Source: an uncultured Acidobacteriota bacterium (lineage in GTDB: Bacteria > Acidobacteriota > Thermoanaerobaculia > Multivoradales > UBA5704). From it: a stretch of 64,000 nucleotides of DNA. Position numbers and translations under genes: made by a program. This document shows positions 11,518 through 64,000 of this stretch, one piece after another. The notes beneath the pieces are model-generated. The model saw only the letters and a list, made by a program, of their open reading frames with translations, was not told the DNA's origin and did not search any database. Numbering within the stretch: position 1 is the stretch's first letter; every line of letters starts with the position of its first letter. The stretch spans positions 26,597-90,596 of the forward strand of contig CAVWOZ010000017.1 in NCBI GenBank assembly GCA_963756595.1, in the 5' to 3' direction.

Positions 11518-11637
11518 GAGGCGCCCATCGGCCTCTCTTCGAAGGGCCAGCCACACCGAAACAGAATCCCCCGGAGAGACACGACGTTCTGGACGCTACT
11601 GTACCCTGCAGCTCATCCTTTTTCAGGAGGCCCACCC

Positions 11638-23149: not shown

Positions 23150-23202
23150 CCGACACGCCGGTGACCCCGGCGGCAGGGCGGCAGGGAGATCGGGGCCGCC
23201 CA

Positions 23203-31025: not shown

Positions 31026-32045
31026 ATGCCGAAGTTTGTGCTCGACCACGACGAGGTGGCGTCGATCCAGAAGCTGCTCGCCGGGATCGCGGCGAAGTAC
31101 CGCTCGGCCGAGGACCCCGAGCTCCTGCTCGAGGCGAATCTGCTGGCCCACGAGCTCCCCCGCCGCCTGCGCGCCGCTCTCAACGAGTTCCGCCTCACCG
31201 AGCCCGACGAGGCGATGCTGGTCATCTCGGGGTTCCCGGTCGACGACGTGAAGATCGGCTTGACGCCCGAGCACTGGAAGCTGTCGTCGGAACAGCGGGA
31301 GCCCACCCTCGAGGAGGAGATCCTCTTCGTGCTCGCCGGCTCGCTGCTCGGCGAGTGCATCGGCTGGGCGACCCAGCAGGACGGCCGGATCGTGCACGAC
31401 GTGATGCCGGTCAAGGGGATGGAGCAGGAGCAGATCGGCATCGGCAGCGAGCAGACCATCTGGTGGCACACCGAGGACGCCTTCCACCCGCTGGCCGGCG
31501 ACTACATCGGGCTGATGTTCCTGCGCAACCCGGACCACGTGCCGACCACTTTCGCCCCCGTCGCCGATCTGGGGCTCGCCGACGAGGACCTCGACCTCCT
31601 CTTCGCGCCCCACTTCACCATCCAGCCCGACAAGTCGCACCGGCCGGAGAACGCCGGCGACGCCAAGGGGGAGGGGGACGGCCACCTCTTCGATCACATC
31701 GAGGAGCTGCGCAAGGCGCCGCCGAAGATCGCCATCCTCTCCGGCGACCGCAAGTCCCCCTACATCCGGATCGACCCCTACTTCATGGACCCGGCGGCCG
31801 ACAGCCCGCGGGCGCTCCAGGCGTTCGAGGCGCTGGTCAAGGCGCTCGACGCGCGGATCGGCGACCTCGCCCTCGACGCCGGCGAGATCTGCTTCGTCGA
31901 CAACCGCAAAGCGGTGCACGGCCGCCGCGCCTTCAAGGCGCGCTACGACGGCCACGACCGCTGGTTCAAGCGGATGAACATCACGCGCGACCTCCGGAAG
32001 TCGCGGGAGGCCCGCTCCGACGCGGCGTCACGGATCATCCAGTAA
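31026..32045 (+). CDS. Fe(II)/2-oxoglutarate-dependent oxygenase, clavaminate-synthase-like (VioC/AsnO/MppO-type amino-acid beta-hydroxylase family)
   Basis: 339 aa with the HxE/D facial-triad motif WHTEDAFHP and the distal H...R pair in RKAVHGRRAF. Size and motif spacing match VioC/AsnO. AAAGGA SD before the ATG. Adjacent to the NRPS cluster. Confidence 0.65.
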   Translation: MPKFVLDHDEVASIQKLLAGIAAKYRSAEDPELLLEANLLAHELPRRLRAALNEFRLTEPDEAMLVISGFPVDDVKIGLTPEHWKLSSEQREPTLEEEILFVLAGSLLGECIGWATQQDGRIVHDVMPVKGMEQEQIGIGSEQTIWWHTEDAFHPLAGDYIGLMFLRNPDHVPTTFAPVADLGLADEDLDLLFAPHFTIQPDKSHRPENAGDAKGEGDGHLFDHIEELRKAPPKIAILSGDRKSPYIRIDPYFMDPAADSPRALQAFEALVKALDARIGDLALDAGEICFVDNRKAVHGRRAFKARYDGHDRWFKRMNITRDLRKSREARSDAASRIIQ

Positions 32046-32110: not shown

Positions 32111-32833
32111 TTGGACCCACTCCCCCGCCGCCGACCGAAGTCCGGAAACGCCGCCTTCCCCGCCTCCGGCGGCGGGATGCGGGCGCTGTTCCTGGGGAGC
32201 AGCCTCACCTACGCCAACGACATGCCCTTCATCGTGCAGGCGATGGCGCGGGCGATCGGCAAATCGCTCGACGTCGCCGTGGTGGCGCAGGGCGGGGCCA
32301 ACCTCGAGGACCAGTGGCACCGCGGCGAGGCGCTGCGCAAGATCAAGGAGGGGGGGTGGAGCTTCGTGATCCTGCAGCAGGGGCCGTCGACGGTGCCGGA
32401 GAACCGCGAGAACATGCGGGAGTACACGCGCCGCTTCGCCGAGCCGATCCACAAGGCGGGAGGCCGGCCGGCGCTCTACATGGTCTGGCCGAGCGCCGAC
32501 CGCATGGCCTGGTTCGACGAGGTCCGCAAGTCCTACACGCTGGCCGCCGAGGACGTCGGCGGCATGCTGATCCCGGCCGGCGAGGCCTGGCGGGCGGCGT
32601 GGCGGCGCGATCCCGACGTTTCCCTGCTCAAGCGCGACGGCGTCCACCCCACCCCGGCGGGGTCGTTCACGGTGGCGCTGTCGATCTTCGGCATGCTGTT
32701 CAGCCGCTCGCCGGTGGGGCTGCCGGCGCGCGTGAGGCTGCGCCACGGCGCCTTCGCGCAGGTGGCGCCGTCCCTCGCGCCCCTCCTCCAGGACGCGGCC
32801 GCCGAAGCCAACGACCAGTACGGCCTGCGATGA
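32111..32833 (+). CDS. SGNH/GDSL-like hydrolase family protein (DUF4886-like), paralog 1
   Basis: Block I ALFLGSSLTYAND (a GNSL-like motif) and a DxxH-like C-terminal motif (DGVHPTPAG). TTG start at 32111 preceded by a TAGGAGA SD; the alternative ATG is at 32177. No signal peptide is evident. Confidence 0.5.
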   Translation: MDPLPRRRPKSGNAAFPASGGGMRALFLGSSLTYANDMPFIVQAMARAIGKSLDVAVVAQGGANLEDQWHRGEALRKIKEGGWSFVILQQGPSTVPENRENMREYTRRFAEPIHKAGGRPALYMVWPSADRMAWFDEVRKSYTLAAEDVGGMLIPAGEAWRAAWRRDPDVSLLKRDGVHPTPAGSFTVALSIFGMLFSRSPVGLPARVRLRHGAFAQVAPSLAPLLQDAAAEANDQYGLR

Positions 32834-32885
32834 ACCCCCACGGCGCGATCCCGCGCTCCATCCATCACCCATGGGAGACCGGCAG

Positions 32886-33680
32886 ATGTCGATTCGAGGC
32901 AACGGCCTTTCCGTCGCCGGCGCGGCTTCGCGCCTCGCGATCATCCTGTCCCTGCTGTTCGGCTGCGCCGGCAAGTCCGGCGCGGAGCCCGAGAAAGGCG
33001 AACCCGTGAAATCCGGCAAGACTCTGCGCGTCCTCTTCCTCGGCAACAGCCTGACCTACGCCAACGAGATCCCGCTCATCGTGCAGGCGCTCGCCAGGTC
33101 GGCCGGCCAGGAGCTCTACGTCGAATCGATCACGTATCCCAACTTCAACCTCGAGGACCAGTGGAACCAGGGGGACGCGCTGCGCGCCCTCGACACCAAG
33201 AAGTGGGATTACGTGGTGATGCAGCAGGGACCCTCGTCGCTGATCGAAAACCGCGAGGACATGCGCAAGTGGGCCAAGCAGTTCGCCCCCCGGATCAAGA
33301 AGGCCGGCGCCCGCCCCGCGATGTACATGGTGTGGCCGGACAAGAGCCGGATGGCCTACTTCGACGACGTCCGCGAGGCCTACTCGCTCACCGCCTCGGA
33401 CATCAAGGGGATGTTCATCCCCGCCGGCGAGGCGTGGCGGGCGGCCTGGAAGCGGGATCCGGGCGCCCCGCTCTACTCCTACGACGACTTCCATCCGTCG
33501 GTCGCCGGCTCCTACACCTCGGCGCTGTCGATCTACGGCATGCTCTACAACCGGCCGTTGCAGGGGCTCCCCGCGAAGCTCACGATCGCCGGCAGCCACG
33601 ACATCGAAGTCCCCGCGCCGCTCGCCAAGCTTCTCCAGGAGGCGGCGACCGAGGCGAACCAGAAGTACGGCCGCCCCTGA
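32886..33680 (+). CDS. SGNH/GDSL-like hydrolase family lipoprotein, paralog 2
   Basis: About 55% identical to paralog 1 (VLFLGNSLTYANEIPLIVQALAR...MYMVWPDKSRMAYFDDVREAY...DDFHPSVAGSY). Lipoprotein signal MSIRGNGLSVAGAASRLAIILSLLFGCAG with a GGGAGA SD. The longest ORF begins at 32871. Confidence 0.55.
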   Translation: MSIRGNGLSVAGAASRLAIILSLLFGCAGKSGAEPEKGEPVKSGKTLRVLFLGNSLTYANEIPLIVQALARSAGQELYVESITYPNFNLEDQWNQGDALRALDTKKWDYVVMQQGPSSLIENREDMRKWAKQFAPRIKKAGARPAMYMVWPDKSRMAYFDDVREAYSLTASDIKGMFIPAGEAWRAAWKRDPGAPLYSYDDFHPSVAGSYTSALSIYGMLYNRPLQGLPAKLTIAGSHDIEVPAPLAKLLQEAATEANQKYGRP

Positions 33681-33765: not shown

Positions 33766-36156
33766 CTAGTACAGGAAGGCGTAGCCGATCTTCACGAAGA
33801 AGGAACGGTCGGTCTGCGTCAGGGGGATGCCGAAGATCCCCTGCCGGGTGTTGGTGTAGCCGGTGAACAGCACGGTCTGCGGGTTGATCTTGTAGGAGAA
33901 GAGGAACTGCCCGAAGAGGTTCTTGTCGTGCCGCTCGACTGGGAAGGTGTAGAGGTCGGGGTCGCGGCTGATGTCCTGGTACTGGATGATGGCGCGCACG
34001 AAGGTGCGGACGTTGAACTGGTAGACGATGCGCGCCTGCGAGAGCTGGGCGTCGAACAATTCGCCCCCGGCCACGCGCAGCTTCTCGTCCTCGTAGGAGC
34101 CGGTGAGCTGGAGGTGATCGCCGAGGCGGATCTGCGCCGAGGGGAGCCAGGTCACCGAGCGCGCCGGCCGCGTGTTGTCGAAGTCGATGTCGTCGCCGAA
34201 CTGGGTGGAGAGGCTGAGCTTGAGCCCGCCCGTCGGGTTGAAGGTGAAGTTGACGAGTTGCTGGTCGTAATCGAAGGTGACCCCGTTGAAGAACGTCTTG
34301 TTCTGGTAGTAGTGGGCGTCGAGCGCCGACTGCAGCGGCCCGGCGTAGGTGCCGTAGAGCTCGACGGTCTGGTCGGTCAGCGTCCCCTGATGGTCCTCGG
34401 TGCGCAGGGCGTGGAGGCCGACGCTCGCCTGCGCGTACCAGCCGCCCCGGCGATCGCTGTAGAAGTCGCGCTCGATCTCCCCCTCGGAGGTCTTGATGTC
34501 GACCCGCGGGATGAAGCCGCTGTCGGCGCGGAAGCCGGGGCCGAGGTCCTCGTAGGTGGCGAAGCCGCGCCAGGTGCGCGAGATGTGGTTGTACTGCAGG
34601 TGATAGGCGTCGTCCTGGAAGGCGTTGACCGACTGATCGTTGCGCTGCGCGACGGCCAGCGGATACTGGGTGTCCGAGCGCAGGTACTGGACGCGCACGG
34701 TGTCCGACGGGGTGAGGCGGAAGAAGCCGTCGAGCCCGCCCAGCCGGTTGTGGTAGTCGTCCCCCTTCCCCTCGCGGTCGGTGTAGAGGACGCCGAGCGT
34801 CGAGCGGTCGCCGACGTCGCGCCGGTAGCGCACCACGCTGCTGTCCACCTTGTCGTCGAGGAAGGCGAACGAGGAGTTCTGGTTCGAGGGGATGATCAGG
34901 TTGTTGAGGGCGTCCTGCGCCACGAACAGGCCGAGGGCGTTCTTCCCCTCCTTGGCGTTGACCTTGATCCCCCAGTCCGGGTCGGCCACCGTGCGGGTGA
35001 AGACGGCCTGGAGCGGGGTCAGGAAGAGGTCGGCCCCCTCGAGGAAGAACGGGCGCTTCTCCGGGTAGAAGAGGGCGAAGCGGGTGTTGATCGCGAGCTG
35101 GGCGACGTCGGCCTCGACCTGCGAGAAGTCGGGGTTGACCGCCGCTTCGAGCGAGACGTTCGGGGTGACCCCCCAGCGCGCGGTGATGCCGGGGTCGACC
35201 TTCGACTTGTCCTTCTGGAGATGCCCGTCGGGGAAGGAGTCGAGGGTGTCGCTGCGCAGGCCGGTCAGCGTCGGATCGAGCTCGAGGTTGCGGCCGGGCG
35301 CGATCCCCTGGAAACCGGAGATCTTGTTCTCTTCGCAGAGGGTGCAGTCCTTGGCGCGGTCGGTGTGGCGCGAGGAGATGCGGTGGCGGACGTTGCGCGG
35401 ATAGCTCCGGAACATCTCGATCCCCCAGGTCTGCGCCGCCGCGGTGCGCGGGAAGCGCAGCTGGCGGAAGGGGATGGCGACCTCGGCCACCCAGCCGTCG
35501 GCGGTGATCCGTCCGGCGGAGTTCCAGATCGCGTCCCAGGAGAAGTCCTCCACCCCGTTGGCCTCGGCGAACACGCCGTCGACCTGCACGCCGAGCGGGT
35601 TGACGCGGAACTGGAAGGCGCGCCGCTCGTCGTTGAAGGTGTCGATCTGGAAGCCGACGTGGTCGTCCTGAACGAACGGTCCGGTGGCGTCGCGGTCCAT
35701 GTAGTGGGCGCGGATCGCCTTCGGATCGGGGTCCTGGCAGCGGAAGGCGACGTAGAGGTTGTCGCCATCGTAGGTGACCAGCGCCTCGGTCTTCACCGGC
35801 GGAGTGACGTTGTCGCCGGGGTACCACTCGTAGGGAAGATCGATCACCGTCGCCGTCTTCCAGGCGTCCTCGTCGAGGATGCCGTCGATCTTGATCGGCG
35901 TCGTGGCGCGGGTGACCTGGAACTGGCGCAGCCCGATGGCCTCCGGCTGCGGCGGGACCGGGTGCTCGGGCACCGGCGGGGTGAGGTGCTCGGGCTGCGG
36001 CACGGCGGGCATGGCGGGCTGCGCCTGGGGCTGGGCCGGCGCGGGCGGCTGGGCCGGCGCGACGGTCTCCTGCGCCCGGGCGCCGCCGGCGAGCAGGGCG
36101 GCGAGCCCGGTGGCGGCGAGCAGACCGGTGCGGATTCTATGCATAGAGGCTCTCAT
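33766..36156 (-). CDS. Outer-membrane protein with N-terminal CBM9/DOMON-like domain and DUF5916 beta-barrel
   Basis: Signal peptide (MRASMHRIRTGLLAATGLAALLAGGARAQE) and a Pro-rich linker. The CBM9-like region is IKIDGILDEDAWKTATVIDLPYEWYPGDN...NLYVAFRC. The C-terminal residue is aromatic (...IGYAFLY), an OMP beta-barrel signature. The longest ORF runs to 36210. Confidence 0.55.
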   Translation of the reverse strand: MRASMHRIRTGLLAATGLAALLAGGARAQETVAPAQPPAPAQPQAQPAMPAVPQPEHLTPPVPEHPVPPQPEAIGLRQFQVTRATTPIKIDGILDEDAWKTATVIDLPYEWYPGDNVTPPVKTEALVTYDGDNLYVAFRCQDPDPKAIRAHYMDRDATGPFVQDDHVGFQIDTFNDERRAFQFRVNPLGVQVDGVFAEANGVEDFSWDAIWNSAGRITADGWVAEVAIPFRQLRFPRTAAAQTWGIEMFRSYPRNVRHRISSRHTDRAKDCTLCEENKISGFQGIAPGRNLELDPTLTGLRSDTLDSFPDGHLQKDKSKVDPGITARWGVTPNVSLEAAVNPDFSQVEADVAQLAINTRFALFYPEKRPFFLEGADLFLTPLQAVFTRTVADPDWGIKVNAKEGKNALGLFVAQDALNNLIIPSNQNSSFAFLDDKVDSSVVRYRRDVGDRSTLGVLYTDREGKGDDYHNRLGGLDGFFRLTPSDTVRVQYLRSDTQYPLAVAQRNDQSVNAFQDDAYHLQYNHISRTWRGFATYEDLGPGFRADSGFIPRVDIKTSEGEIERDFYSDRRGGWYAQASVGLHALRTEDHQGTLTDQTVELYGTYAGPLQSALDAHYYQNKTFFNGVTFDYDQQLVNFTFNPTGGLKLSLSTQFGDDIDFDNTRPARSVTWLPSAQIRLGDHLQLTGSYEDEKLRVAGGELFDAQLSQARIVYQFNVRTFVRAIIQYQDISRDPDLYTFPVERHDKNLFGQFLFSYKINPQTVLFTGYTNTRQGIFGIPLTQTDRSFFVKIGYAFLY

Positions 36157-36237
36157 CGAAAGTTCGTCTCCAGAAAAAATCGGATCGAAAACGGAGGGCG
36201 GGGGCGGCACCTGCGCGGCGCGCCCCCGCCTCCTCGC

Positions 36238-37629
36238 TCAGGCCTGGGCGGGAGCCGCCTCGTCGGGGACGTCGGCCGCCGCCTCGGGCTCCGGCTCCGG
36301 CTCCGGCGCCTTCCGCTTGGGGGCGTCGGGAAGCTCGGCCTCGACGTTGCGCACGCGCGGGTTGAGCAGCCCCATCAGGGCGACGAGCGCGGGGACCAGC
36401 GCCATCGAGACCATCAGCAGGCCGATGCCGCGGCCGGGACCGACGCCGATCACCCGGCCGGCGACCGTGCCGGCGAGCACGCCGCCGACCATCATCGCCG
36501 GGTTGAAGATCTTGTCGGCCAGCGGGCCGGCCGAGAAGTCGCCGAGCGGTACGGTGAACTGGGCGATCATGCGGCGCACCGCGAAGACCCGCCCCTGGAC
36601 GTCGCCCGGGGTCTTGCTCTGCCAGATCGCCTGGCTCGAGGCGTTCATGATCGGCAGGCCGATGTACCAGAGCAGCACGCCCGCCCCCACCATGTAGATG
36701 TTGGGACGCAGGCCGATGATCACGAACCAGACGCCGAGCGCCGCCCAGGCGCCGAGCACGCCGTAGATCCGCTTCTTGGGGCCGCCGGTGGCGGTCATGA
36801 TGGCGCCGCCGATCAGCGTGCCGACGCCGACCAGACCCATGATCGTCCCCACCGCCGCCTCGTTGGCGAAGGCCGCGATCATCGGCAGGATGGCGACGCC
36901 GCACATCGACATCACGAAGTTGATCAGGGCGAACAGGAGGAGGAGGTTGAAGAGGCCCGGCCGCTCGCGGATGAAGGTCCAGCCGAACGCCGCCTCCTTC
37001 CAGATCGAGCCCTTGGCGCGCTTCCCCTCCTCGCTCTGCTCCGGCCGCGGCACGTGCACGAACAGCAGCGCGCCGGCGGCGAACAGGAAGGTGACGAAGT
37101 CGATGACCAGGATCTTCGCGATGCCGCCGAAGATGACCATCAGGAAGCCGCCGATGGCGGGGCCGGCGATGGTGGTCGCCGAGCCGGCGAACTCGAGGAA
37201 GCCATTGACCCGCCCGTAGTCCTTGGGCTGCACCAGCAGGGTGATGGCCGCGATGTAGGCCGGCCACTGGAAGGTTGCGATGATCGAGTTGAAGATCACC
37301 CCGATGTAGATGTGCCAGACCTGGAGCTGGTTCTGCGACAGCAGGTAGGCGTAGGTTCCCACCGTGATCGCCGGGCCGATGCTGCACCAGAAGAGGACCC
37401 ACTTCCGGTCCCAGCGGTCGACGAGGGCGCCGGCGATCGGCCCGATGAAGATCCCGGGGAGCCCCGCGAAGACGATCGTCAAGGTGAACTGGGTCACCGA
37501 GTGGGTGTGCTTGAGCACCCACAGGCTGAGCGCGAAGCTGGTCAGCCCGGAGCCCATCAGGGAGACGAACTGTCCCACCCAGATGATCACGAACGTCTTG
37601 AAGGCACTGCTTTCTTTTGGTTCTGACAT
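36238..37629 (-). CDS. MFS transporter (EntS/macrolide-exporter-like), probable peptide exporter
   Basis: 12-14 TM helices and the MFS motif GALVDRWDRK. Lies immediately downstream of the last NRPS gene on the same strand, 55 bp away. Confidence 0.8.
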   Translation of the reverse strand: MSEPKESSAFKTFVIIWVGQFVSLMGSGLTSFALSLWVLKHTHSVTQFTLTIVFAGLPGIFIGPIAGALVDRWDRKWVLFWCSIGPAITVGTYAYLLSQNQLQVWHIYIGVIFNSIIATFQWPAYIAAITLLVQPKDYGRVNGFLEFAGSATTIAGPAIGGFLMVIFGGIAKILVIDFVTFLFAAGALLFVHVPRPEQSEEGKRAKGSIWKEAAFGWTFIRERPGLFNLLLLFALINFVMSMCGVAILPMIAAFANEAAVGTIMGLVGVGTLIGGAIMTATGGPKKRIYGVLGAWAALGVWFVIIGLRPNIYMVGAGVLLWYIGLPIMNASSQAIWQSKTPGDVQGRVFAVRRMIAQFTVPLGDFSAGPLADKIFNPAMMVGGVLAGTVAGRVIGVGPGRGIGLLMVSMALVPALVALMGLLNPRVRNVEAELPDAPKRKAPEPEPEPEAAADVPDEAAPAQA

Positions 37630-37684: not shown

Positions 37685-40600
37685 TCAGGAGGCGGCGCCG
37701 GCGCCGCGGGTCCGATAATCGTTGACGAACCAGCGCAGCACCTCGCGGCAGTGCGCCGCCAGCGCCTGCACCGTTTCGACCTTGTGCAGGTTGGTGTTGT
37801 GCTCCCACTTGATCAGCAGCTTGTCCTCGATGACGTAAGCGCCGATGGTGATCGGGCAGAGCCGCTTGGTGCCGCGGTCCTGGTGATAGCCGCCGAACAT
37901 CTGGAGCTTGCGCAGCCGCTCGAGCTCCTTGGCGTTGTCGGGGCCGAGGTAGTTGAAGAAGACCTGCGGCTCGAGCGCCTTGTGCATGTGGTCGACGACG
38001 TCCGGATCGGTCGAAAGATAGCGCAGCAGCCCGAAGCCCGTGCCGCCGTGCGGGATGCGCCGCAGCTGGCGGTTGAGCTCGCGGGCGCTGGCGATCCAGT
38101 CCGGGTCGGGACCGAGGTCGAGGAGCACCGGATAGATGGTGTTGAACCAGCCGATGCTGCGCGTCAGGTCCATGTCGTCGTAGAGCGCCTCGCGGCCGTG
38201 GCCGAGGAGGAGGATGGGGAGCGAGCGCGAGCCGATCCAGCGCTCGAAGGCGGTGAGCACGGCGGCGACCAGCACGGCGTCGATCTGCACGCCGAGGAAG
38301 CGCGGCACCTGCTGCAGCAGGATCTGGGTCTCCTCGAGGTCGAACTCGGCGGGCTGGAAGCGCGCCGAGATCCAGTCGTTCGGCCCCAGCTCGTGATCCA
38401 TCGGGAAGCGCGGCGGATTGATCGGCGCCTGCGCCAGCCAGTAGTCGAGCTCCTGCTGCGGCATCCCCCCCGGCTTCGCCCGCGCCGCCAGCCGCTCGGC
38501 CCACTGCTGCGCCGAGGTGGTCTTGCGCGGCACCGAGATCGCCTCCCCCGCCTCGAGCTGCCGGTAGGCGGCGTCGAGGTCGTCGAGCAGCATCTGCCAG
38601 GAGTTGATGTCGGCCGCCATGTACTGCCCGGTGATGTGAAGAAAACGGATCTTCCCCGGCTGGAGATCGAACATAACGGTACGAATCAGGTTGCCTTCCG
38701 CCATTTTGCAGCTTATCACGAGCTCGCGGACCGCCTTCGACATCACCAGCATCTGCTGGTCCTCGGCGACCTCGGAGAGGTCGACCCGCAGCAGGTTGAC
38801 CGGCGCGCCCGGCGGGTCGATGACGAGCGAGAGGCCCTTCCCCGCGACTCCCTCGCTCTCCTCGCCGACCACCCGCACCCGCAGGTTGTCGTGGTGGCGC
38901 ATGACGTGCTCCATCGCCGCCTGGAAGAGGTGGAACTGGAGGTCGCCGTCCTTCGGCTCGAACAGCATGCCGATCGTGTGGTAGTCGGGGTTCGGGTGGT
39001 GCTGGTCGAGGAAATGGAGCTGCGCCGGCGTCCAGCCGACCGCCCCGGTGACCGGACCCTGCTCGGCGACGATCTCGATGGTGCCGGCGACGGCGGCCAG
39101 CTCGGCGACCGTGCGGTGCTGGAAGACCTGCTTGGTGGTGATCCCCATCGCCGCCTTGTTCGCCTTGGTGACCACGCGGATGACGAGGAGCGAGTCGCCC
39201 CCCAGCTCGAAGAAGTCGTCGTTGATCCCCACCCGCTCGAGCGAGAGGAGCTCGGCCCAGAGGGCGCAGAAGAACTCCTCCTTCTCGTCGCGCGGCGCCA
39301 CGTACTCGCGGGCCGCCGAGGCGCGGTCGGGGGCCGGCAGGGCGCGGCGGTCGACCTTGCCGTTGGGGGTCAGCGGCATGGCGTCGAGGAAGGTGTAGAC
39401 CGCCGGCACCATGTACTCCGGCAGCTTCTCCTTGAGATAGGTGCGCAGGTCGGTGACGTTCGGCTTATCAGTACCGGCGGCGGTCACCAGATAGGCGGCG
39501 AGCTGCTTGCTGCCGGGCGAATCCTCGCGCGCCACCACCACCGACTGGCCGACCGCCGGATGGTGGTCGAGGGCGGCCTCGATGTCGCCGAGCTCGATGC
39601 GGAAGCCGCGCACCTTGACCTGGTGGTCGATGCGGCCGAGGAACTCGACGCGGCCGTCGGCGAGATGGCGCGCCAGATCGCCCGTGCGGTAGAGGCGCGC
39701 TCCCGGCTCCTCGACCAGCGCGGCGAACGGATGCGGGATGAACTTCTCGGCGCTGAGGTCCGGGCGCCCCCGGTAGCCGCGGGAGAGGCCGGCGCCGCCG
39801 ATCAGCAGCTCGCCCGGCACCCCGGCCGGCACCGGCTTGAGCTGGCGCGAGACGAGGTAGATCTCTGTGTTGTCGAGCGGCCTGCCGATGGTGATCGGCC
39901 CGGACGAGCCGACCTGGTCGAGGGTCGACCAGATCGTCGCCTCGGTCGGGCCGTAGACGTTCCACAGCGAGCCGCAGGCGGCGAGCAGCTGGCTCGCGAG
40001 GTCGCGCGGCAGCGCCTCGCCGCCGCAGAGGATCTTCAGGTCGCGGTCGCCGAGCCACCCCGCGGCGAGCAGCAGCCGCCAGGTGGCGGGGGTCGCCTGC
40101 ATGGCGGTGACCCCCTTCTGCTCGAGGACCTCGCGGAGCTTCTCCCCCGCCTGCGTGGTCTCGCGGGTGACCAGGATCAGCCGCGCGCCGCAGACCAGCG
40201 GCAGGTAGAGCTCGAGCCCCGCGATGTCGAAGGAGAGGGTGGTGACGGCGAGCAGGGTGTCGGCGCTGGTCAGCCCCGGGCGCTTGCGCATCGAGTTGAG
40301 GAAGTTGACCACCGCCGAGTGCGGGATCTGCACCCCCTTCGGCTTCCCCGTCGACCCCGAGGTGTAGATCACGTAGGCCACGTTCCCCGCCTGGACGCCG
40401 GCGTCGAGGGGGTCGGCGCTCTCGGCGGCGATCGCCGCCGCGTCGCGGTCGACCGCCACGATCCGCGCGCCGTGCTCGGGGAGGCGCTCGATCAGGTGTT
40501 CCTGGGTGAGGAGCACCGGTACCCGCGAGTCGTCGAGCATGTGGGCGAGGCGCTCCTTCGGGTACTCGGGGTCGAGCGGCACGTAGCCGCCCCCCGCCTT

Positions 40601-42340
40601 GAGCACCGCGAGCACCCCGGCCAGCATGTCGAGCGAGCGCTCCATGGCGAGGCCGACCAGCGTCTCCGTCCCCACGCCGTGGCGGCGCAGGTGATGGGCC
40701 AGGCGGTTGGCCCGCTCGTCGAGCTGGCGGTAGGTCAGCCGGCTCTCCTCGAGCTCGACGGCGACGGCGTCCGGGGTCTCCCGCACCCGTTCCTCGATCC
40801 AGCCGTGGAGGGTGACGGCGGGGACCTCGGCCGCGGTGGCGTTCCAGTCGACCAGCACCTGCCGCCGCTCCTCGTCCGAGAGCAGCGGCAGCTCCGAGAG
40901 GTGGAGTCCGGGGTGCGCGATCACCGCCGCCAGCACCCGCCGGTAGTGGTCGAGCAGGCGCTCCATGGTGCCGCGCTCGAAGAGGTCGGTGTTGTACTCG
41001 AGGAAGCCGTCGATGCCGGTCGGCGTGTCGGTGAAATAGAGGGTCAGCTCGGTCTTCGAGGTGCGGCTGTCGATCGCCACCGGCTGCAGCTTGAGCCCCG
41101 GCAGGTCCATCGCCTCGCCGGGGGCGTTCATCAGGATCAGCATCACCTGGAAGAGCGGCGTGCGGGCCATGTCGCGCGGCGGGTTGAGCTCCTCGACGAG
41201 CTTCTCGAACGGCACGTCCTGATGGGCGTAGGCGTCGAGCGACACCTCGCGCTCGCGCCCCAGCAGCTCGCGGAAGGTCGGGTCGCCGGAGAGGTCGCTG
41301 CGCAGCACCAGGCTGTTGGCGAAGAAGCCGATCAGCACCTCGATCTCCGGCTGGCGGCGGTTCGCGATCAGCGTGCCGACCGCGATGTCCTCCTGGGTGG
41401 TCCAGTGATGGAGGAGCGCCTTGAAGGCCGCCATCAACGCGATGAACAGGGTCGACCCCTCGCGCTGCGCGAAGGCCTTGAGGTCGCCCGCCAGACGGTC
41501 GCCGAGCACCAGCGGGATGGCGGTGCCGTTGTGCGAGCGCACGGCCGGGCGCGGGTGGTCGGTCGGCAGCTCGAGCGGCGGCACCGAGCCGAGCTGGCGG
41601 CGCCAGAAGGCGAGCTGCGCCTCGAGCACCTCGCCGGAGAGCCACTCCCGCTGCCAGACCGCGAAGTCGAGGTACTGGATGGGGAGGTCGAGCAGCGTCG
41701 AGGGGATGCCGGCCGCGAAGGCGTCGTAGATCGCCGCCAGCTCGCGGGCGAAGATCCCCATCGACCAGCCGTCGTAGGCGATGTGGTGCACGTTGTAGTA
41801 GAGCAGGTACTCGCGCTCGCCGGCGCGGAAGAGCTTGGCGCGCATCAGCGGCCCGAGGGTGAGGTCGAACGGCTCGCGGGCGTCGGCGGCGGCGAGACGC
41901 AGCGCCTCCCCCCAGGCGTCGGCCGGGTCGCTCACCCGCGGCCGCGCGTCGACGTAGGGGACCTCCATGTCGACCACCTGCGCGATCACCTGCGCCGGCG
42001 TCCCCTCGATCGAACGGAAGGTGGTGCGCAGCGTCTCGTGGCGGCGCACCACCTCGCGGAGCGCCTTCTGCATCACCTCCGGATCGAGCTCGCCGACGAT
42101 GCGGAAGGCCTGCGGGATGTTGTACTCCGGGCTCTCCGGCTCGAAGTTGTTGAGGAACCAGAGTCGCTGCTGGGCGAAGGAGAGCGGGTAGGTCTCGCTC
42201 TCGCGGGGCTGGCGCGGGATGCGCTTCGCCTCGCCGGCCGGCTTCTCCTTTTCCCGCTGTTTCTGGAGCTGCTCGAAAAGGAGCATGCGCTTCTCGAGCG
42301 GCAGCTCGGCGATGCGCTTGGCGATTTCTGTTTCCGTCAT
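37685..42340 (-). CDS. NRPS, final module: C-A-T plus terminal condensation-like domain
   Basis: N-terminal docking helix, then a C domain (YPLSFAQQRLWFL). A-domain core motifs are YTSGSTGKPKG, NVYGPTE, YRTGDLAR and VKVRGFRIELGDIE; T-domain motif is FFELGGDSLL. The C-terminal roughly 450 aa form a C-like domain with a degenerate His motif (LHITGQYMAADINSW). No thioesterase domain is present. Hand-extracted specificity code DILQLGVIWK matches the Gly code DILQLGLIWK at 9 of 10 positions. Confidence 0.9.
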   Translation of the reverse strand: MTETEIAKRIAELPLEKRMLLFEQLQKQREKEKPAGEAKRIPRQPRESETYPLSFAQQRLWFLNNFEPESPEYNIPQAFRIVGELDPEVMQKALREVVRRHETLRTTFRSIEGTPAQVIAQVVDMEVPYVDARPRVSDPADAWGEALRLAAADAREPFDLTLGPLMRAKLFRAGEREYLLYYNVHHIAYDGWSMGIFARELAAIYDAFAAGIPSTLLDLPIQYLDFAVWQREWLSGEVLEAQLAFWRRQLGSVPPLELPTDHPRPAVRSHNGTAIPLVLGDRLAGDLKAFAQREGSTLFIALMAAFKALLHHWTTQEDIAVGTLIANRRQPEIEVLIGFFANSLVLRSDLSGDPTFRELLGREREVSLDAYAHQDVPFEKLVEELNPPRDMARTPLFQVMLILMNAPGEAMDLPGLKLQPVAIDSRTSKTELTLYFTDTPTGIDGFLEYNTDLFERGTMERLLDHYRRVLAAVIAHPGLHLSELPLLSDEERRQVLVDWNATAAEVPAVTLHGWIEERVRETPDAVAVELEESRLTYRQLDERANRLAHHLRRHGVGTETLVGLAMERSLDMLAGVLAVLKAGGGYVPLDPEYPKERLAHMLDDSRVPVLLTQEHLIERLPEHGARIVAVDRDAAAIAAESADPLDAGVQAGNVAYVIYTSGSTGKPKGVQIPHSAVVNFLNSMRKRPGLTSADTLLAVTTLSFDIAGLELYLPLVCGARLILVTRETTQAGEKLREVLEQKGVTAMQATPATWRLLLAAGWLGDRDLKILCGGEALPRDLASQLLAACGSLWNVYGPTEATIWSTLDQVGSSGPITIGRPLDNTEIYLVSRQLKPVPAGVPGELLIGGAGLSRGYRGRPDLSAEKFIPHPFAALVEEPGARLYRTGDLARHLADGRVEFLGRIDHQVKVRGFRIELGDIEAALDHHPAVGQSVVVAREDSPGSKQLAAYLVTAAGTDKPNVTDLRTYLKEKLPEYMVPAVYTFLDAMPLTPNGKVDRRALPAPDRASAAREYVAPRDEKEEFFCALWAELLSLERVGINDDFFELGGDSLLVIRVVTKANKAAMGITTKQVFQHRTVAELAAVAGTIEIVAEQGPVTGAVGWTPAQLHFLDQHHPNPDYHTIGMLFEPKDGDLQFHLFQAAMEHVMRHHDNLRVRVVGEESEGVAGKGLSLVIDPPGAPVNLLRVDLSEVAEDQQMLVMSKAVRELVISCKMAEGNLIRTVMFDLQPGKIRFLHITGQYMAADINSWQMLLDDLDAAYRQLEAGEAISVPRKTTSAQQWAERLAARAKPGGMPQQELDYWLAQAPINPPRFPMDHELGPNDWISARFQPAEFDLEETQILLQQVPRFLGVQIDAVLVAAVLTAFERWIGSRSLPILLLGHGREALYDDMDLTRSIGWFNTIYPVLLDLGPDPDWIASARELNRQLRRIPHGGTGFGLLRYLSTDPDVVDHMHKALEPQVFFNYLGPDNAKELERLRKLQMFGGYHQDRGTKRLCPITIGAYVIEDKLLIKWEHNTNLHKVETVQALAAHCREVLRWFVNDYRTRGAGAAS

Positions 42341-42382
42341 CTGTAAATCTCCTGTCGTTACCCTTGCGAAGCGCGGAGCCGT

Positions 42383-45300
42383 TCAGCCCGGCAGGCCTTC
42401 CATCTCGCGCAGCAGCCTGGCCAGCAGGTCGTCGTCGGCCCGCGCCAGCTCTTTTTGAACGATCGCCTCGGCGAGTCCGGCCACCGTCGGGCTGTCGAAG
42501 ATGACGCGCAGCGGCAGCTCGATCGCGAAGGCGTCGCGCATCCGCGACAGCACCTGCGTCGCCATCAGCGAGTGGCCGCCCAGCTCGAAGAAGTTGTCGT
42601 GCGCCCCCACCCGCTCGAGGCGGAGCACCTCGGCCCAGATCGCCGCCACCTTCTCCTGCACCGCCCCCTCGGGCGGCACGAAGTCGCGCCCCAGCTCGGG
42701 ACGGGCGCCGTCGGGGGCCGGCAGCGCCTTCCGGTCCACCTTGCCGTTGGCGGTCAGCGGCAGAGCCGGCAGCGCCACGAACCACGACGGGATCATGGGC
42801 TCCGGCAGCGCCTCCTTGAGCGCCGCGCGCAGGTCGGAGACGGTGAGCGGCTGTGCCGCTGCCTCGTCCGCCGGCACGTAGTAGGCGGCGAGCTGCGGGT
42901 TGCCGGGCGTGTCCTCCCGCACCATCACCGTCACCCCGGAGATCGCCGGCAGGCGCGAGAGGGCCGCTTCGATCTCCCCCAGCTCGATGCGGAAGCCGCG
43001 GATCTTCACCTGGTGGTCGATCCGCCCCAGGTACTCGAGGTCGCCGTCCGGCAGGCGGCGCGCCAGGTCGCCCGAGCGGTAGAGGCGGGCGCCGGCCGGG
43101 CCGAACGGATCGGGGACGAAGCGCTCCGCCGTCAGCTCGGGCCGGCCGAGGTAGCCGAGGGCCACCCCTTCTCCACCCACCACCATCTCCCCCGGCACGC
43201 CGACCGGCTGCACGCTGAGAGCCGCGTCCACGATGTGGAGGGTGAGGTCGGGGATCGGCACGCCGAGCACGCTCCCCCGCCCGGCGGCGAGGTCGGCGCG
43301 GCGGATCGGCCGGTAGGTGACGTGGACGGTGGTCTCGGTGATGCCGTACATGTTGACCAGCAGCGGCCGCTCGTCGCCGTGGCGCGCGAACCAGGGGGCG
43401 AGCGAGGGCAGGTCGAGCGCCTCGCCGCCGAAGATCACCCGCCGCAGGGCGAGCGACGGTGCGGCCCCGGCGAGGACCGTCTCCTCCGCCCACAGGAGCT
43501 GGCGGAAGGCGGACGGCGTCTGGTTGAGCACCGTCACCTTCTCAGTCGCCAGCAGGGCGTAGAACGCCTCCGGCGAGCGGCTCTCCCAGTAGGGGACCAC
43601 CATCAGCCGGCCGCCGTAGAGGAGCGCTCCCCAGATCTCCCACACCGAGAAGTCGAAGGCGTAGGAGTGGAAGAGGGTCCACACGTCCTCGGGGCCGAAA
43701 GCGAACCACGGGGCGGTGGCGCTGAGCAGACGGGTGACGTGGCCGTGCGGGATCACCACCCCCTTCGGGCGGCCGGTCGAGCCCGAGGTGTAGATCACGT
43801 AGGCCGGCAGCTCGGCGTCGGCCGGCACGCCGGCGCTCGTCGGCTCGCGGGCGGCGATCGCCGCCGCCTCGGCCGCGAGGTCGATCACCTTCAGCCCCGG
43901 CCGCTGCGGCAGGGAGGCCGCCGCTTCCCCCTGGGTGAGGACGACGGCGACGTGGCTGTCCGCCAGGGCGAAGGCGAGGCGCTCGGCGGGGTACGACGGG
44001 TCGAGCGGCAGGTAGCCGGCGCCCGCCTTGAGCGTCGCCACGATCGCCACCACCAGCTCGAGCGAGCGCTCGAAGCAGAGCCCCACGAGGTCCCCCGGCC
44101 GCACGCCGGCGGCGAGCAGGTGGCGGGCGAGGCGGTTGGCCCGCTCGTCGAGCTCGCGGTAGCTGAGGGCCTCCGCGCCGAGCGACACCGCGGGCCGGTC
44201 GGGGGTCTGCTCCGCCTGCGCCTCGAAGAGGCGGTGGATCGGGGCCCGTCCCTTGTCCAGGGGCACCGCCGCCGGGTTCCACTCCGCCACCATCTGATGG
44301 CGCTCGGCTTCACCGAGCAGCGGCAGGTCGGCGATCCGCGCCGGCGCCTCGGCCAACATACCCGTGAGCAGGTGGACGAAGGAGAAGCAGAGGCGGCTGA
44401 TCGTCGCCGGATCGAACAGCTCGGTGCTGTACTCGACGTCGAAGATCGTCCGCTCGCCATCGGCCTGCACGGCGAGGGTGAGGTCGAACTTCGCCGTGCC
44501 GCTGGCGGCGCCGAGCGGCGTCACCCGCAGCCCCTCGGCCACGAAGTCCCGGCGGGCCAGGTTCTGGAACGCCAGCACCACCTGGAAGAGGGGCGAATGG
44601 CTCATGCTGCGCTCGGGCGACAGCTCCTCGACCAGCTTCTCGAACGGCACGTCCTGGTGGGCGTCGGCGTCGAGCACCGTCTCGCGGAGGCGCTCGACGA
44701 GGGCGCGGACCTCGTCCTCGCCGGCGACGTCGCAGCGCATCACCAGGGTGTTGACGAAGAAGCCGATCAACGGCTCGATCTCCACCCGGTTGCGGCCGGC
44801 GACCGGCACCCCGACGGCGAAGGTCGATTGGCCGCTGAAGCGATGGAGCAGCGCCGCGAAGCCGGCGAGGAGGACCATGAACGGCGTCGCCGCGAGGCGC
44901 CGCCCGGCGAGCTTCAACGCCGCGGAGAGGTCGCTGCCGAGGGCGATCCGGCGCCCGGCGCCGCGCCGGCTGCGCACCGCGGGGCGCGGGCGGTCGGTGG
45001 GGAGCTCGATCAGCGGCGGCAGGCCGGCGAGCCGCTCGCGCCAGTGCGCCAGCTCCGCCGCCAGCGTCTCCCCCGAGAGCCAGCGGCGCTGCCAGTGGGC
45101 GAAGTCGGCGTACTGGATGGGCAACGCCGGAAGAGACGCGGGCTTGCCCAGGGTCAGCTCGGCGTAGAGGGCCGACATCTCGTGCACGAAGATCGGCAGC
45201 GACCAGCCGTCGCTGACGATGTGGTGCAGGGTGACCAGGAGGACGTGCTCCTCGCCCCCCAGGCGCAGCAGGGTCGCACGCAGCAGGGGGCCGTGGTCGA

Positions 45301-48300
45301 GCGAGAACTGCAGCCGGCTCTCGACGGCCATGCACACCCGCGCCTCCCTCCCCCGCCGCGCCTCCTCGAGGGCGCTGAGGTCGACCACCGGCAGGGCTCC
45401 GGGAACTGGCGGATGGACCACTTGCAGCGGCAGCCCGTCGACGGCCGTGAAGGTGGTGCGCAGCGCCTCGTGGCGCCGCACGATCCCGTCGATCGCCCCG
45501 GCCAGCGCGGCGACCTCCAGCGCTCCTTCGAGGTGGAGCGCCATCGGGATGTTGTAGGTGGCGCTCTCCGGCTCCAGGCGGTCGAGGAACCAGAGGCGCT
45601 GCTGCGAGAACGACACCGCCAGCGCCTCGCCGCGCGGCACCGGCTCGATCCGCGGCGGCCCCGCGACCTCGCCAGCGGCGCCGGCGCGGCGGATCTCCTC
45701 GATGGTGCGGGCGAGCCCGGCGAGGGTGGGATTGTCGAACAGGGCGCGCAGCGGCAGCTCGACGCGGAACTGCTCGCGTGCCCGGGAGATCACCTGGGTG
45801 CCGAGCAGCGAGTGGCCGCCGAGGTCGAAGAAGTCGTCGTGGGCGCCGGCCCGCGGCACCCCCAGCACCTCGCACCAGATCCCCTCGAGGATCTCCTCGG
45901 CCGCCGTGCGCGGCGCCACGTACCCCCCCTCGCTCTCGGCGTGCTCGTAGACGGGCTCCGGCAGGGCGCGCTGGTCGACGCGGCCGTTCGAGGTCAGCGG
46001 CAGGGCGTCGAGCAGCACCACGGCGGCGGGGATCATGTGCTCTGGGAGACTCTCGCGGAGGAAGTCGCGCAGCTCGCGGACCGTCGCCTCCGTCCCCGGC
46101 ACCAGCGTCGCGTAGCCGACCAGCCGCTTCCCCAGCCGGCCGTCGCTGCGCACCAGGACGATGCTGTCCTTCACCGCCGGGTGGCGCGCCAGCACCGCGC
46201 CGACCTCCGCCGGCTCGACGCGGAAGCCGCGGATCTTCACCTGGTCGTCGCGCCGCCCGAGGTACTCGAGGTCGCCGGTCGGCAGCCAGCGGCCGACGTC
46301 CCCCTGGCGGTACATGCGCAGCCCCTCGCCGTAGCCGAGGCTGGCGGCGAACGGGTCAGGGAGGAAGCTCGCCGCCGTGCGGTCGGGCCAGTTGGCGTAG
46401 CCGCGCGAGACGTTGGGGCCGCCGATGTAGACGTCCCCCGCCACCCCCGCCGGCACCGGCTCGAGCGCGGCGTCGAGCACGTAGGCGCAGCAGTTGTGGA
46501 TGGTGCGGCCGACCGGCACGCGGTCGCCGGCGCGGAAGCGCGCCAGGTCCTCGACGCCGGGCTGGTAGACCACGGCGGTGACCGTCGCCTCGGTCGAGGC
46601 GTAGCTGTTGTTGAGGGCCACGCGGTCGCCGACCAGCGCGAGCCACTCCGCCACCCGCTCGGGGAGCGCCTGCTCGGTGCCGATGACGACCAGGCGCAGC
46701 GGCTCCGGCGGCGGCGTCATCGCCCGCGCCAGCTCCCCCACCCACTCGTGCCAGTAGGCGGTCGGCAGGTCCATGGCGGTGATCCCGTAGCGCTCGATCA
46801 GCTGCCAGAGCTCGCCGAACGACGGGAAGAGGCCCGGCGGACGCGGCACCACGGCGCCGCCGTGGATCCAGGTCGGGAAGATCTCCTCCGAGGTGATGTC
46901 GAAGCTGATCGAGGTGAACTGGAGAGTGCGGTCGCGCGGCCCCATGCGGTAGGCGAGGCCGCAGGCGGTGACGTGGTTGATCATCGCCCGGTGCGGCACG
47001 GCGACCCCCTTCGGCCGCCCCGTCGAGCCCGAGGTGTAGACGATGTAGGCGAGGCTCTCGGGGTCGATCTCCCAATCCGGCGCCTCCGCGCTCTCCGCCG
47101 AGAGATCGAGGCCGTCGACAGCGATCACCGCCGGCCCGCCGGCGAGCGCGGGGAGGCGGTCGGCGAGGTGCGACTGGATGAGCAGCACCGGCATGGCGGT
47201 GTCCTCGATCATCAGGGCGAGGCGCTCCTGCGGATACTCGGGGTCGAGCGGCACCCAGGCGCCCCCCGCCTTGAGCACGGCGAGGAGGACCAGCGGCATC
47301 TCGAGCGAGCGCTCGACGCAGACGCCGACCGACATCTCGGCCCCCACCCCCAGCCGGCGCAGGCGGCGGGCCAGGCGGTTGGCCTGCGCCTCGAGCTCGC
47401 CGAAGGTGAGCACGCGGTCGCCGAAGAGGACGGCCGGCGCGTCGGGGTTCCGGCGCGCAGCCTCTGCGACGCGGTCGAGGATGGTGGCGGGAGCTCCGGC
47501 GTAGCGCTGGTTCCAGTCGACCAGGATCTGCCGCCGCTCCTCCGGCAGCAGCATCGGCAGCTCGCCGACCCCCCGCTCGGGGGCGGCGAGGACGGCCGCC
47601 AGCAGGGTCTCGAAGTGGCCGGCCATGCGCGCCACCGTCGCCCGCTCGAAGAGGTCGGTGCTGTACTCGAGATAGCCGCCGAGGCCGCCGGGATGCTCGA
47701 ACATCTCGAGGGTGAGATCGATCTTCGCGAGCCCGCGGTCGACCGGCAGGCTCGACAGCGCCAGCCCCGGCAGGGCGAGCGCGCCGCCGCCACCACCCAT
47801 GGCGTTCTGGAGCGCGAAGACCACCTGGAAGATGGGGTTGTGCGACAGGTTGCGGTCCGGCTGCAGCTCCTCGACCAGCTTCTCGAAGGGGAGGTCCGAG
47901 TGGCCGAAGACGGCCAGCGCTTCGGCGCGCACGCGGCCGAGCAGGGCGAGGAACCCCTCCTCCGGCCGCAAGGTGGCGCGCACCAGCAGGGTGCTGGCGA
48001 AGCAGCCGACCACCCGCTCGTGCTCGGTGCGGTTGCGGTTGGCGACCGGCACCCCGACCACGAAGTCGCCCTGCCCCGTATAGCGGAAGAGGAGGAGGTC
48101 GAAGAGGGTGAGGAGCGCCATGAACGGCGTCGCCCCCGCCCCCTGGGCCAGCGCCTTGAAGCGAGCCGCGGCGGGATCGGGGATCTCGAAGCGCACCGCG
48201 TCGCCGCGCGGCGAGGCCATGTGGCGCCGGGGATGGTCGGTGGGGAGCTCGAGGACGGTGGGCGCTCCCTCCAGCCGCTCCCGCCAGAAGGCGATCTCCT

Positions 48301-48999
48301 GGCGCAGCGCCTCGCCGTGCAGGCGCTGGCGCTGCGCGCGGGCGAAGTCGGCATAGCTCGCCCGCAGCGCCGGGAGGTCGGGCTTCCCACCGGTGGCAAA
48401 GGCAGAATAGAGCGCGGCGAAGTCGCGCAGGATCAGCCCCACCGACCAGCCGTCGCTGACGATGTGGTGGTGGCAGAGCAGGAGCACGTGCTCCTCGCCC
48501 CCCAGACGCAGCAGCGTGGCGCGGAAGAGCGGCCCGCGGGCGAGGTCGAACGGCCGGCGCGACTCCTCGCCGGCGAGCGCCGTCGCCCGCTCCAGGGCCT
48601 CCTCCGGCGCCAGTCCGGTGAGATCGACGACCCTGACCAGAGGGCCGGCACCCGGAAGCTCACGCTCGACGCGCTGCACCGGCTCCGCCCCCTCGAGAGG
48701 GAAGCGGGTGCGCAGCGACGCGTGGCGGCGGACCAGCCCGTCGAGCGAGCGCTCGAGCGCCCCGCGGTCGAGGACCCCCGTCAGGCGCAACGCCCGGAAC
48801 ATGTTGTCGAGGTAGCTGCCGGGGTCGAGCTGGTCGAGGAACCAGAAGCGCTGCTGCGCGAAGGAGAGCGGATAGTCCCCCGGCTCGGCCGCCGATACCG
48901 CGGGAGGGGCGCCGCCCATCGCCTTTTCACGGGCGAGGCGGGCGACGAGGGCGAGCTTCTCCTCGCGCGAGAGGTTGGCGAGATCGGCCGGGGCGACGC

Positions 49000-49003
<4 letters not shown>
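42383..49003 (-). CDS. NRPS, two modules (C-A-T-C-A-T)
   Basis: The real start is a GTG at 49003 overlapping the upstream gene's TGA (GTGA); the protein begins MSVAPADLANLSREEKLALVARLAREKA. C domains carry HHIVSDGWS motifs. A1 has a non-canonical A5 (NSYASTE) and the code DIEDVGSVTK (acidic pocket). A2 reads DFWNIGMVHK, an exact match to the Thr code. It ends with a COM-like tail. The 3789-aa ORF listed for this frame is an upstream artifact. Confidence 0.9.
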
Positions 49004-55551
<6,548 letters not shown>

Positions 55552-55566
55552 AGTAGGGATGACTCC

Positions 55567-64000
<8,434 letters not shown>

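Follow-up and report, generated by a model that had tools for sequence, protein, structure and literature searches.

The 64,000-nucleotide stretch of contig CAVWOZ010000017.1 analyzed here (hereafter the window), from an uncultured Acidobacteriota bacterium, carries on its minus strand an orphan nonribosomal peptide synthetase (NRPS) cluster of a familiar kind whose unusual feature is the way in which it ends. The last module lacks a thioesterase (TE) and consists of condensation (C), glycine-specific adenylation (A) and thiolation (T) domains followed by a catalytically dead epimerization (E) domain, here termed E*, and this arrangement is conserved beside a gene for a major facilitator superfamily (MFS) exporter. 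We give roughly an even chance to the overall reading that the window holds the 3′ eight modules of an orphan TE-less assembly line, in which four subunits act in the order D, C, B, A, E* is non-catalytic, and the peptide is freed by hydrolysis in trans and exported. The gene and domain anatomy on which this reading is built is assigned with high confidence; the release step is proposed tentatively, at somewhat less than even chances. The domain at the center of the argument lies as follows.

37685-39076, minus strand: E*, a catalytically degenerate epimerization domain comprising the last 460 residues of NRPS gene A

All ten matches of E* in a phmmer search of the PDB are E domains (from PvdL, BacC, GrsA, TycA and TycB), with values from 4e-51 for the PvdL E domain to 5e-36, and close homologues carry the JGI annotation TIGR01720. 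An AlphaFold2 model of E* (predicted local distance difference test score, pLDDT, 88; predicted template-modeling score, pTM, 0.85) was compared with known structures by Foldseek, and the top 13 matches are likewise E domains, with template-modeling (TM) scores of 0.82-0.88, as against approximately 0.70-0.75 for C, glycopeptide X and Cy domains; the structure of a fungal CT domain, that of TqaA, is not among the top 50. The E-type motifs TPAQLHF, GHGRE, SIGWFNTIYP, PHGGTGFG and FNYLG are visible, and motifs E1 and E3-E7 are recognizable. By sequence and by modeled fold, the terminal domain is an E-domain homologue with an E-type fold rather than a generic C-like domain. This changes the picture given by the earlier note on this DNA, which had described a degenerate terminal domain of the C superfamily. 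The degenerate active site stands, but the “HITGQ...D” segment on which that description relied is out of register: in HMMER alignments the canonical HHxxxDG is matched by QYMAADI, and EGHGRE by LGHGRE, with the same outcome in an alignment of the relatives. The view of the domain as merely C-like is contradicted by both its sequence matches and its fold, and the note's remark that neither E domains nor dual C/E signatures can be seen does not survive, given the E-type terminal domain and the DCL-type first C domain of gene C described below.

In comparison with canonical E domains (GrsA-E, TycA-E, PvdL-E2 and BacC-E), E* thus shares the fold and motifs, and also the type of carrier that precedes it: the T domain ahead of E* bears the sequence GGDSL, a variant typical of carriers serving E domains, while the other seven T domains of the cluster bear GGHSL. 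It differs in that the catalytic second His of HHxxxD is replaced by Tyr (Phe in some relatives) and the catalytic Glu of EGHGRE by Leu, in that the residue activated upstream is achiral Gly, and in that neither a DCL-type C domain nor a COM donor follows it, the protein ending without the TPSDF…LDQ tail. Having lost both the catalytic His and the Glu, E* can neither epimerize nor condense in the canonical manner. Nor does it conform to the CT or bacterial terminal C domains, which resemble it in lying at or near the end of the line but keep the catalytic second His (SHxxxD), since this His is Tyr in E* and C domains score far below E domains both in sequence and in fold.

The same combination of features recurs in a small group of homologues. 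Among 333 aligned E-like domains, pooled from two database searches, 300 retain both the His pair and the Glu, and 12 carry the signature by which the E* clade was defined ([QH][YF]xxxD together with LGHG[RK]E). In all twelve, E* forms the extreme C-terminus of the protein, the position of the second His is occupied by Tyr or Phe, and the TPSDF…LDQxxLD tail of normal subunit-terminal E domains is missing. The A domain ahead of E* is of the Gly type wherever it could be read, namely in the window, in loci L001 and L079 (DILQLGVIW), and in proteins P0327 and P0331 (DILALGVI.K) and P0391 (DILALGLV.K); for P0003 and P0006 the Gly-type assignment comes from the partial motif NVYGPTEATIW only. P0327 (1556 aa) and P0391 (1546 aa) are, like gene A, stand-alone C-A-T-E* proteins. 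Several positions are specific to the clade (H27, H33, D266, N312, N335 and D380), and a search among them for alternative catalytic residues turned up no convincing base or nucleophile.

Genomic context was recovered for four relatives (L001, L079, L081 and L082), whose E* domains are 33-75% identical to that of the window. In all five loci, the window included, no NRPS gene comes after the E* gene, whose immediate neighbor downstream is an MFS gene (43-78% amino acid identity). No acceptor subunit was seen to follow E* in the parts of these clusters covered, which stop short of the far-upstream regions. A gene for a protein with CBM9 and DUF5916 domains is present in four of the five (the window, L001 at 82%, L081 at 69% and L079 at 54%). 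The terminal position of the E* gene, the MFS gene beside it and the presence of DUF5916 in most loci together define a conserved cassette, C-A(Gly)-T-E* / MFS / (DUF5916), and the C-A(Gly)-T-E* module itself was found across metagenome-assembled genomes (MAGs) labeled Acidobacteriota and Chloroflexota. No description of a dead terminal E domain that follows Gly, without a TE and beside an MFS gene, was found in the literature searched.

The four NRPS genes that lead up to this module, with domains from Pfam and specificity codes given in each line, are as follows.

37685-42340, minus strand: NRPS gene A, 1551 aa; C-A(Gly)-T(GGDSL)-E*, a stand-alone terminal module (code DILQLGVIWK)
42383-49003, minus strand: NRPS gene B, 2206 aa; C-A(basic, Lys-like code)-T-C-A(Thr)-T (codes DIEDVGSVTK and DFWNIGMVHK)
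49000-55551, minus strand: NRPS gene C, 2183 aa; DCL-type C-A(basic, Lys-like)-T-LCL-A(Gly)-T (codes DTEDIGTIVK and DILQLGLVWK)
55567 to beyond 64000, minus strand: NRPS gene D, partial; [C tail]-A(Pro)-T-C-A(Leu-like)-T-C-A(Pro-like)-T (codes DVQFIAHVAK, DAWFAGHVVK and DVQFIAQVVK)

These large open reading frames, in a window of about 70% G+C, show the third-position GC bias of real genes. Gene D contributes three AMP-binding, three PP-binding and two Condensation domains, and its reading frame is still open at 63999, the edge of the window; in all, Pfam recognizes AMP-binding, PP-binding and full Condensation-family domains eight times each, and the edge cuts off all but the tail of a ninth C domain. 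Neither a reductase nor a methyltransferase was found by Pfam in the four NRPS genes, and Pfam and motif scans of the whole 64 kb gave no TE domain, no MbtH protein and no GxSxG motif of thioesterases. The genes are tightly packed. The stop codon of D is 15 nt from the ATG start of C, C and B overlap in a GTGA sequence within which B starts at GTG (ribosome-binding site GGAGGAG), and B and A are 42 nt apart, with a GGAG-like ribosome-binding site at each of the three junctions; the four genes are translationally coupled. The MFS gene begins 55 nt after gene A, and the CBM9/DUF5916 gene 27 nt after that. A scan for promoters and terminators gave nothing above chance. The layout is as the earlier note had it on several counts: four collinear minus-strand NRPS genes with at least eight modules (eight A domains, with D open at the edge), narrow gaps and one GTGA overlap, no thioesterase, and genes for an MFS exporter and a probable outer-membrane protein immediately downstream.

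The specificity codes were read by aligning the eight A domains to a segment of GrsA-PheA, which returned the known code DAWTIAAICK. From gene D to gene A they correspond to Pro, a Leu-like residue, a Pro-like residue, a basic residue, Gly, a second basic residue, Thr and Gly. The first basic-residue code, DTEDIGTIVK, agrees at 8 of 10 positions with DTEDVGTVVK, and the second, DIEDVGSVTK, at 9 of 10 with DIEDVGSVVK, both of which are predicted Lys codes in the NRPSs of isonitrile lipopeptides (bioRxiv 10.1101/121228). The product would accordingly be expected to end in …Pro–(Leu-like)–Pro–basic–Gly–basic–Thr–Gly, which reproduces the order Pro-Leu-Pro-X-Gly-X-Thr-Gly proposed earlier and makes each X a basic residue that, to judge by its code, is Lys-like.

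Six of the C domains are LCL-like, with 39-55% mutual identity, and one stands apart from these at 25-30%.

54202-55551, minus strand: first C domain of gene C, DCL-type, with a COM-acceptor-like N-terminus (MSKQNVEDIYPLSASQQGMLFH)

The best PDB matches of this domain are McyB-C1 (371 bits), BacC-C, PvdL-C3, SrfA-C and TycB1 (230-371 bits), all of which accept their substrates from E domains, as opposed to only 73-84 bits against LCL domains in the PDB. Its N-terminal motif MSKQNVEDIYPLSASQQGMLFH also heads 27 C domains that come directly after an E domain in other loci, and we take it to resemble the COM-acceptor/DCL heads of GrsB and TycB. A dual E/C function was considered for this domain and, on motif grounds, not adopted. 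Dual E/C domains are defined by an N-terminal second His motif, HH[I/L]xxxxGD (Rausch 2007, PMC1894796), which is absent here, the corresponding sequence being GMLFHLLFAADKGQVY; the domain is classed only as DCL-type. The fact that gene C opens with such a domain means that the Pro-like residue preceding it may be handled as a D-residue. No E domain precedes it: gene D ends in a T domain and a short acidic tail (…LLTAELDDPELEETD), as do its counterparts in the related loci L002 and L004. The second C domain of gene C (50890-52290) has features of its own, with an unusual HHFVHDGWS motif and a C1 motif reading PLSFPQERVWF. It follows the first basic-residue module, has its closest counterparts in L081 (63%) and L082 (46%), and by sequence suggests a conserved subtype.

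The subunit termini indicate how the line might be put together. The tails are of the types “DDELDALL” and “DDDLLARLL” and the heads of the types “LSREEKLAL” and “LPLEKRMLL”, and the same types are found between adjacent genes in L081 and L082. Gene D would dock to gene C through its acidic tail and the COM-acceptor head of C, while C to B and B to A would dock by way of “DDELDALL”-type tails, such as that at the end of gene C (…DDELDALLGSMLAEEKHS), and “LSxEEK”-type heads. Since the tail and head types match, and since the gene D orthologue of a relative starts with a loading module, the subunits would act in gene order, D to C to B to A.

The relatives of the cluster also show what is likely to lie beyond the window. 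The source bacterium is probably related to Thermoanaerobaculia, as the closest loci are from uncultured Acidobacteriota/Thermoanaerobaculia MAGs, namely L001, L002 and L004 at 81-86% nucleotide identity and L003 at about 74-78%; the gene D orthologues in L002 and L004 are 81% identical at the nucleotide level. Among GTDB representatives the best match is 75% at the amino acid level, and a look-up of the exact sequence of gene A returned no recorded match. In L002/L080 the D orthologue extends five modules upstream and starts with an A-T loading module without a C domain, and D, C, B and A there form a closed line of 13 modules. The upstream walk in L080 covered 18.8 kb beyond the D1 equivalent, and the additional codes in L002/L080 are DVWLTGIVV, DIFHFGLII (twice), DAFFLGVTF (Ile/Val-like) and DFWNIGMVH (Thr). 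Directly upstream in L080 (1-2854) is a further NRPS gene, U (3301 aa), whose last 7 nt overlap the start of the D orthologue and whose closing T domain and tail hardly differ from those with which D ends; gene U could be part of a second assembly line or a duplicate. L003 has at least three further modules in cis, with no gene boundary, and the difference between it and L002/L080 indicates that the number of upstream modules varies among relatives. L002 has an additional gene of 617 aa (18412-20265), situated between its D and C orthologues and encoding a fusion of a DUF4350-like segment with a TauD/clavaminate-synthase-like oxygenase; neither the window nor L004 contains this gene. No characterized relatives of the cluster or matching specificity codes were found in the literature, and all its close homologues come from uncultured MAGs. 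The broad outline drawn by the earlier note, a large TE-less NRPS line with a degenerate terminal C-superfamily domain and exporter genes next to it, is borne out.

Downstream of gene A are the two genes of the conserved cassette, followed by three genes on the opposite strand.

36238-37629, minus strand: MFS exporter (MFS_1/MFS_3, EntS/Mef-like; Pfam, NCBIfam), 55 nt downstream of gene A
33766-36210, minus strand: secreted protein with CBM9 and DUF5916 domains (Pfam CBM9_1, DUF5916), with a signal-peptide-like N-terminus and an end reading …GYAFLY
32871-33680, plus strand: SGNH-like hydrolase 2 (SGNH2), with a weak DUF4886 match, GNSLTY and DDFHP motifs and a lipoprotein-type signal (…LLFGC)
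32177-32833, plus strand: SGNH-like hydrolase 1 (SGNH1), with weak DUF4886 and Lipase_GDSL_2 matches, GSSLTY and DGVHP motifs and no signal peptide
31026-32045, plus strand: Fe(II)/2-oxoglutarate β-hydroxylase of the VioC/OrfP/GntD type (PDB, NCBIfam)

The CBM9/DUF5916 protein is, to judge by its sequence features, probably an outer-membrane β-barrel. The two SGNH-like proteins are paralogues (55% identity), both with GxSL and DxxH motifs, and the sole PDB match of SGNH1 is an uncharacterized protein (4s1p, 3e-11). Their genes are conserved in L001 and absent from L079, L081 and L082. An α/β-hydrolase-like protein of 450-470 aa (GYS[LT]GG) is encoded beside the E*, MFS and DUF5916 genes in L079 (14832-16190) and L081 (16052-17470); the two copies are 52% identical, and the protein has no homologue in the window.

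The hydroxylase matches OrfP (4e-87) and VioC (1e-85) in the PDB far better than AsnO (2e-33), and among NCBIfam models it scores 464 bits with GntD (cut-off 345) and is borderline with VioC (418.3 against a cut-off of 418.6). The iron-binding HxD/E…H residues are present in WWHTEDAF and AVHGRR. Its gene is 73% identical in L001, where it is the last syntenic gene, synteny ending near 31000. The conservation of a VioC/OrfP-type hydroxylase together with the cluster makes a hydroxy-Arg or another hydroxylated basic residue possible in the product, although both basic positions appear Lys-like by code. In scoring at the family level, the enzyme is like the β-hydroxylases of Arg or enduracididine in the VioC, OrfP and GntD systems; unlike in those systems, the window has no basic-residue A domains other than the two whose codes come closest to those for Lys. 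The flank also contains two citrate-synthase genes, one of them frameshifted, which are not conserved with the cluster in L001, its closest relative. Of the flanking genes listed by the earlier note, then, the SGNH pair, the hydroxylase and the citrate synthases are all there, but the last do not share in the synteny. A siderophore product was considered and dropped on the grounds that the citrate synthases are not syntenic in L001, that the outer-membrane protein is of the CBM9/DUF5916 type and not a TonB receptor, and that the hydroxylase is of the Arg type.

Further from the cluster, housekeeping genes at 728-6474 (MlaD, an MlaF-like ABC protein, MlaE, alanine racemase and DnaB) flank the region, which places it on the chromosome. 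Several non-NRPS genes are split between frames: an AcrB gene (19925-23164 and 22377-23147), an HTH-citrate-synthase-like gene (29620-30200 and 30239-30823), a TIR-NB-ARC-TPR gene (11638-12820/12815-14263) and an NB-ARC and TPR gene (9164-10726/10975-11517). The 26 kb of NRPS genes are intact, unlike these, and the splits suggest either indel errors of long-read sequencing or pseudogenes. The last two are adjoining STAND NTPase genes (9164-14263), one of them the TIR-NB-ARC-TPR gene, that overlap a patch of lower G+C (0.64, 10-12 kb), and the pair may represent a defense-type island.

With respect to how the chain leaves the synthetase, the favored explanation is that E* would be retained as a non-catalytic partner of the last T domain, while a trans-acting hydrolase would free the Gly-thioester, in this cluster the cytoplasmic SGNH1 and in the more distant clusters the α/β-hydrolase. 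For this trans-acting role SGNH1 is a candidate. The MFS pump encoded alongside and the CBM9/DUF5916 protein would then export the peptide, a route that, like the subunit order and the stereochemistry of the product, is a prediction. Several observations weigh against this explanation. The five E* loci have no hydrolase in common: only the window and L001 contain the SGNH genes, only L079 and L081 the α/β-hydrolase, and L082 has neither type within 10 kb, with the consequence that trans release depends on weak, non-homologous candidates. SGNH2, being a lipoprotein, cannot act on a cytoplasmic synthetase. The folded E* domain is strictly conserved over a range of 33-79% identity, always terminal and always after Gly, which implies that it does something specific, possibly non-canonical catalysis. 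The collinear model leaves unexplained the presence of a DCL-type domain in gene C after a T-terminated subunit that has no E domain. Finally, a TE or further subunits could lie beyond 64000, and in L080 NRPS gene U is immediately upstream.

The earlier note had instead made the terminal domain itself the release catalyst, acting in a condensation-like manner at what would have to be a non-canonical site, either to amidate the chain with a free amine or to macrocyclize it. Such a domain would be a counterpart of the fungal CT or bacterial terminal C domains. This would account for the lack of a TE, reductase or other release domain in the window and up to 10 kb downstream in the four related loci, for the invariable position of E* as the very last domain and its strong conservation as a folded domain, and perhaps for the clade-specific residues enumerated above. 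The strict requirement for Gly could reflect a sterically tight pocket, and the bare A-T loading module of L080 would supply a free N-terminal amine that could cyclize head-to-tail onto the C-terminal Gly. The active site speaks against it: C, E and CT domains all require the second His of HHxxxDG (PMC1894796, PMC10510592), but this residue is Tyr or Phe in every member of the clade, the Glu of E domains is Leu, and no clade-wide replacement base or nucleophile is apparent. Moreover, E* groups by sequence and fold with E domains and not with C or X domains, TqaA falling outside the top 50 fold matches. Taken with the achiral Gly and the GGDSL carrier, these properties of an E-domain homologue lead us to regard amidation or macrocyclization by a C-like catalyst as unlikely.

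A different role for an inactive E domain is known from linear gramicidin synthetase A (LgrA), in which F-A-T-C-A(Gly)-T-E*, with a catalytically inactive E domain after a Gly module and T domain at the end of the subunit, hands Val-Gly to LgrB (PMC10510592). By analogy, E* could pass its chain to the D-specific C domain of a next subunit, in which case the order of action would not be the gene order and the true TE module would be outside the window; the acceptor could be the DCL-type domain of gene C or an upstream NRPS such as gene U of L080. It fits this idea that the cluster contains exactly one DCL-type C domain, with a COM-acceptor-like N-terminus and no active E domain before it, and that an NRPS gene lies immediately upstream in L080. 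The resemblance has its limits. The inactive E domain of LgrA is at an internal junction, and the assembly line for gramicidin has a reductase domain at its end, whereas here E* is on the last NRPS gene, next to an MFS cassette, with no downstream subunit or release domain visible. The E* clade lacks the COM-donor tail of normal subunit-terminal E domains; the D gene of L080/L002 begins with a loading module, and from there to A each tail is matched by the head of the next subunit, with no head left over for A. The E* gene is followed by the exporter as the last NRPS gene in five of five loci, and there is no DCL-type domain within 10 kb upstream in L079, L081 or L082. Because E* has no COM tail and the four genes are a closed set in L080, a transfer from A to C is ranked lower, and hand-over of this type strikes us as quite improbable.

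We judge it similarly improbable that E* serves chiefly as a recruitment platform, in which the dead E fold would bring to the last carrier protein either the MFS exporter, so that release is coupled to export, or a tailoring or release enzyme. E* and MFS genes are adjacent in all five loci even where E* identity drops to 33-47%, and there is a precedent for a dead C-family scaffold in the X domain, which has Arg in place of the second His (PMC1894796, PMC10510592). Like E*, the glycopeptide X domain lies near the end of its line and has a degenerate His motif, and it acts as a scaffold; unlike E*, it is derived from LCL domains, has a TE after it, and serves to recruit P450s, of which there are none here. 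Biosynthetic clusters often contain an adjacent exporter gene, and the adjacency may be no more than a sign of inheritance as an operon; recruitment overlaps with retention of E* as a non-catalytic partner of the T domain rather than excluding it. More broadly, the C-A(Gly)-T-E* unit may conceivably be an undescribed type of NRPS termination module, in which an epimerase fold without its catalytic His and Glu has been put to a new purpose and E* is either a non-canonical off-loader of the C-terminal Gly thioester or a docking site that couples release to the MFS exporter, though we consider the chances of this to be well below even.

Assembly lines that are off-loaded by thioesterases of the penicillin-binding protein (PBP) type, such as SurE and DsaJ, provide a further comparison, as they too have no cis-acting TE, and an E domain is commonly the final domain of their last module. 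They differ in being actinobacterial and in having active E domains, and no PBP or β-lactamase-family gene was found in the window or the related loci. The stand-alone PBP-type releaser prefers a C-terminal D-residue, and the engineered variant SurE G235L accepts a C-terminal Gly (PMC11735501). Literature searches for characterized Acidobacteriota nonribosomal peptides, and for terminal E domains associated with PBP-type TEs, gave no match.

Whether an NRPS makes a linear, cyclic or amidated product depends on how the chain is released, and release is a main obstacle to re-engineering such lines. A TE-less line with a dead E domain after Gly, situated beside an exporter, either needs an unrecognized trans-acting enzyme or shows a new use of the C/E fold; in other respects this is an orphan NRPS cluster like very many others. 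Its conserved terminal module marks a family of orphan peptide clusters, with 13 modules in the one relative whose start is seen and two basic residues encoded in the window, among uncultured Acidobacteriota of soil, whose phylum has yielded few known natural products.

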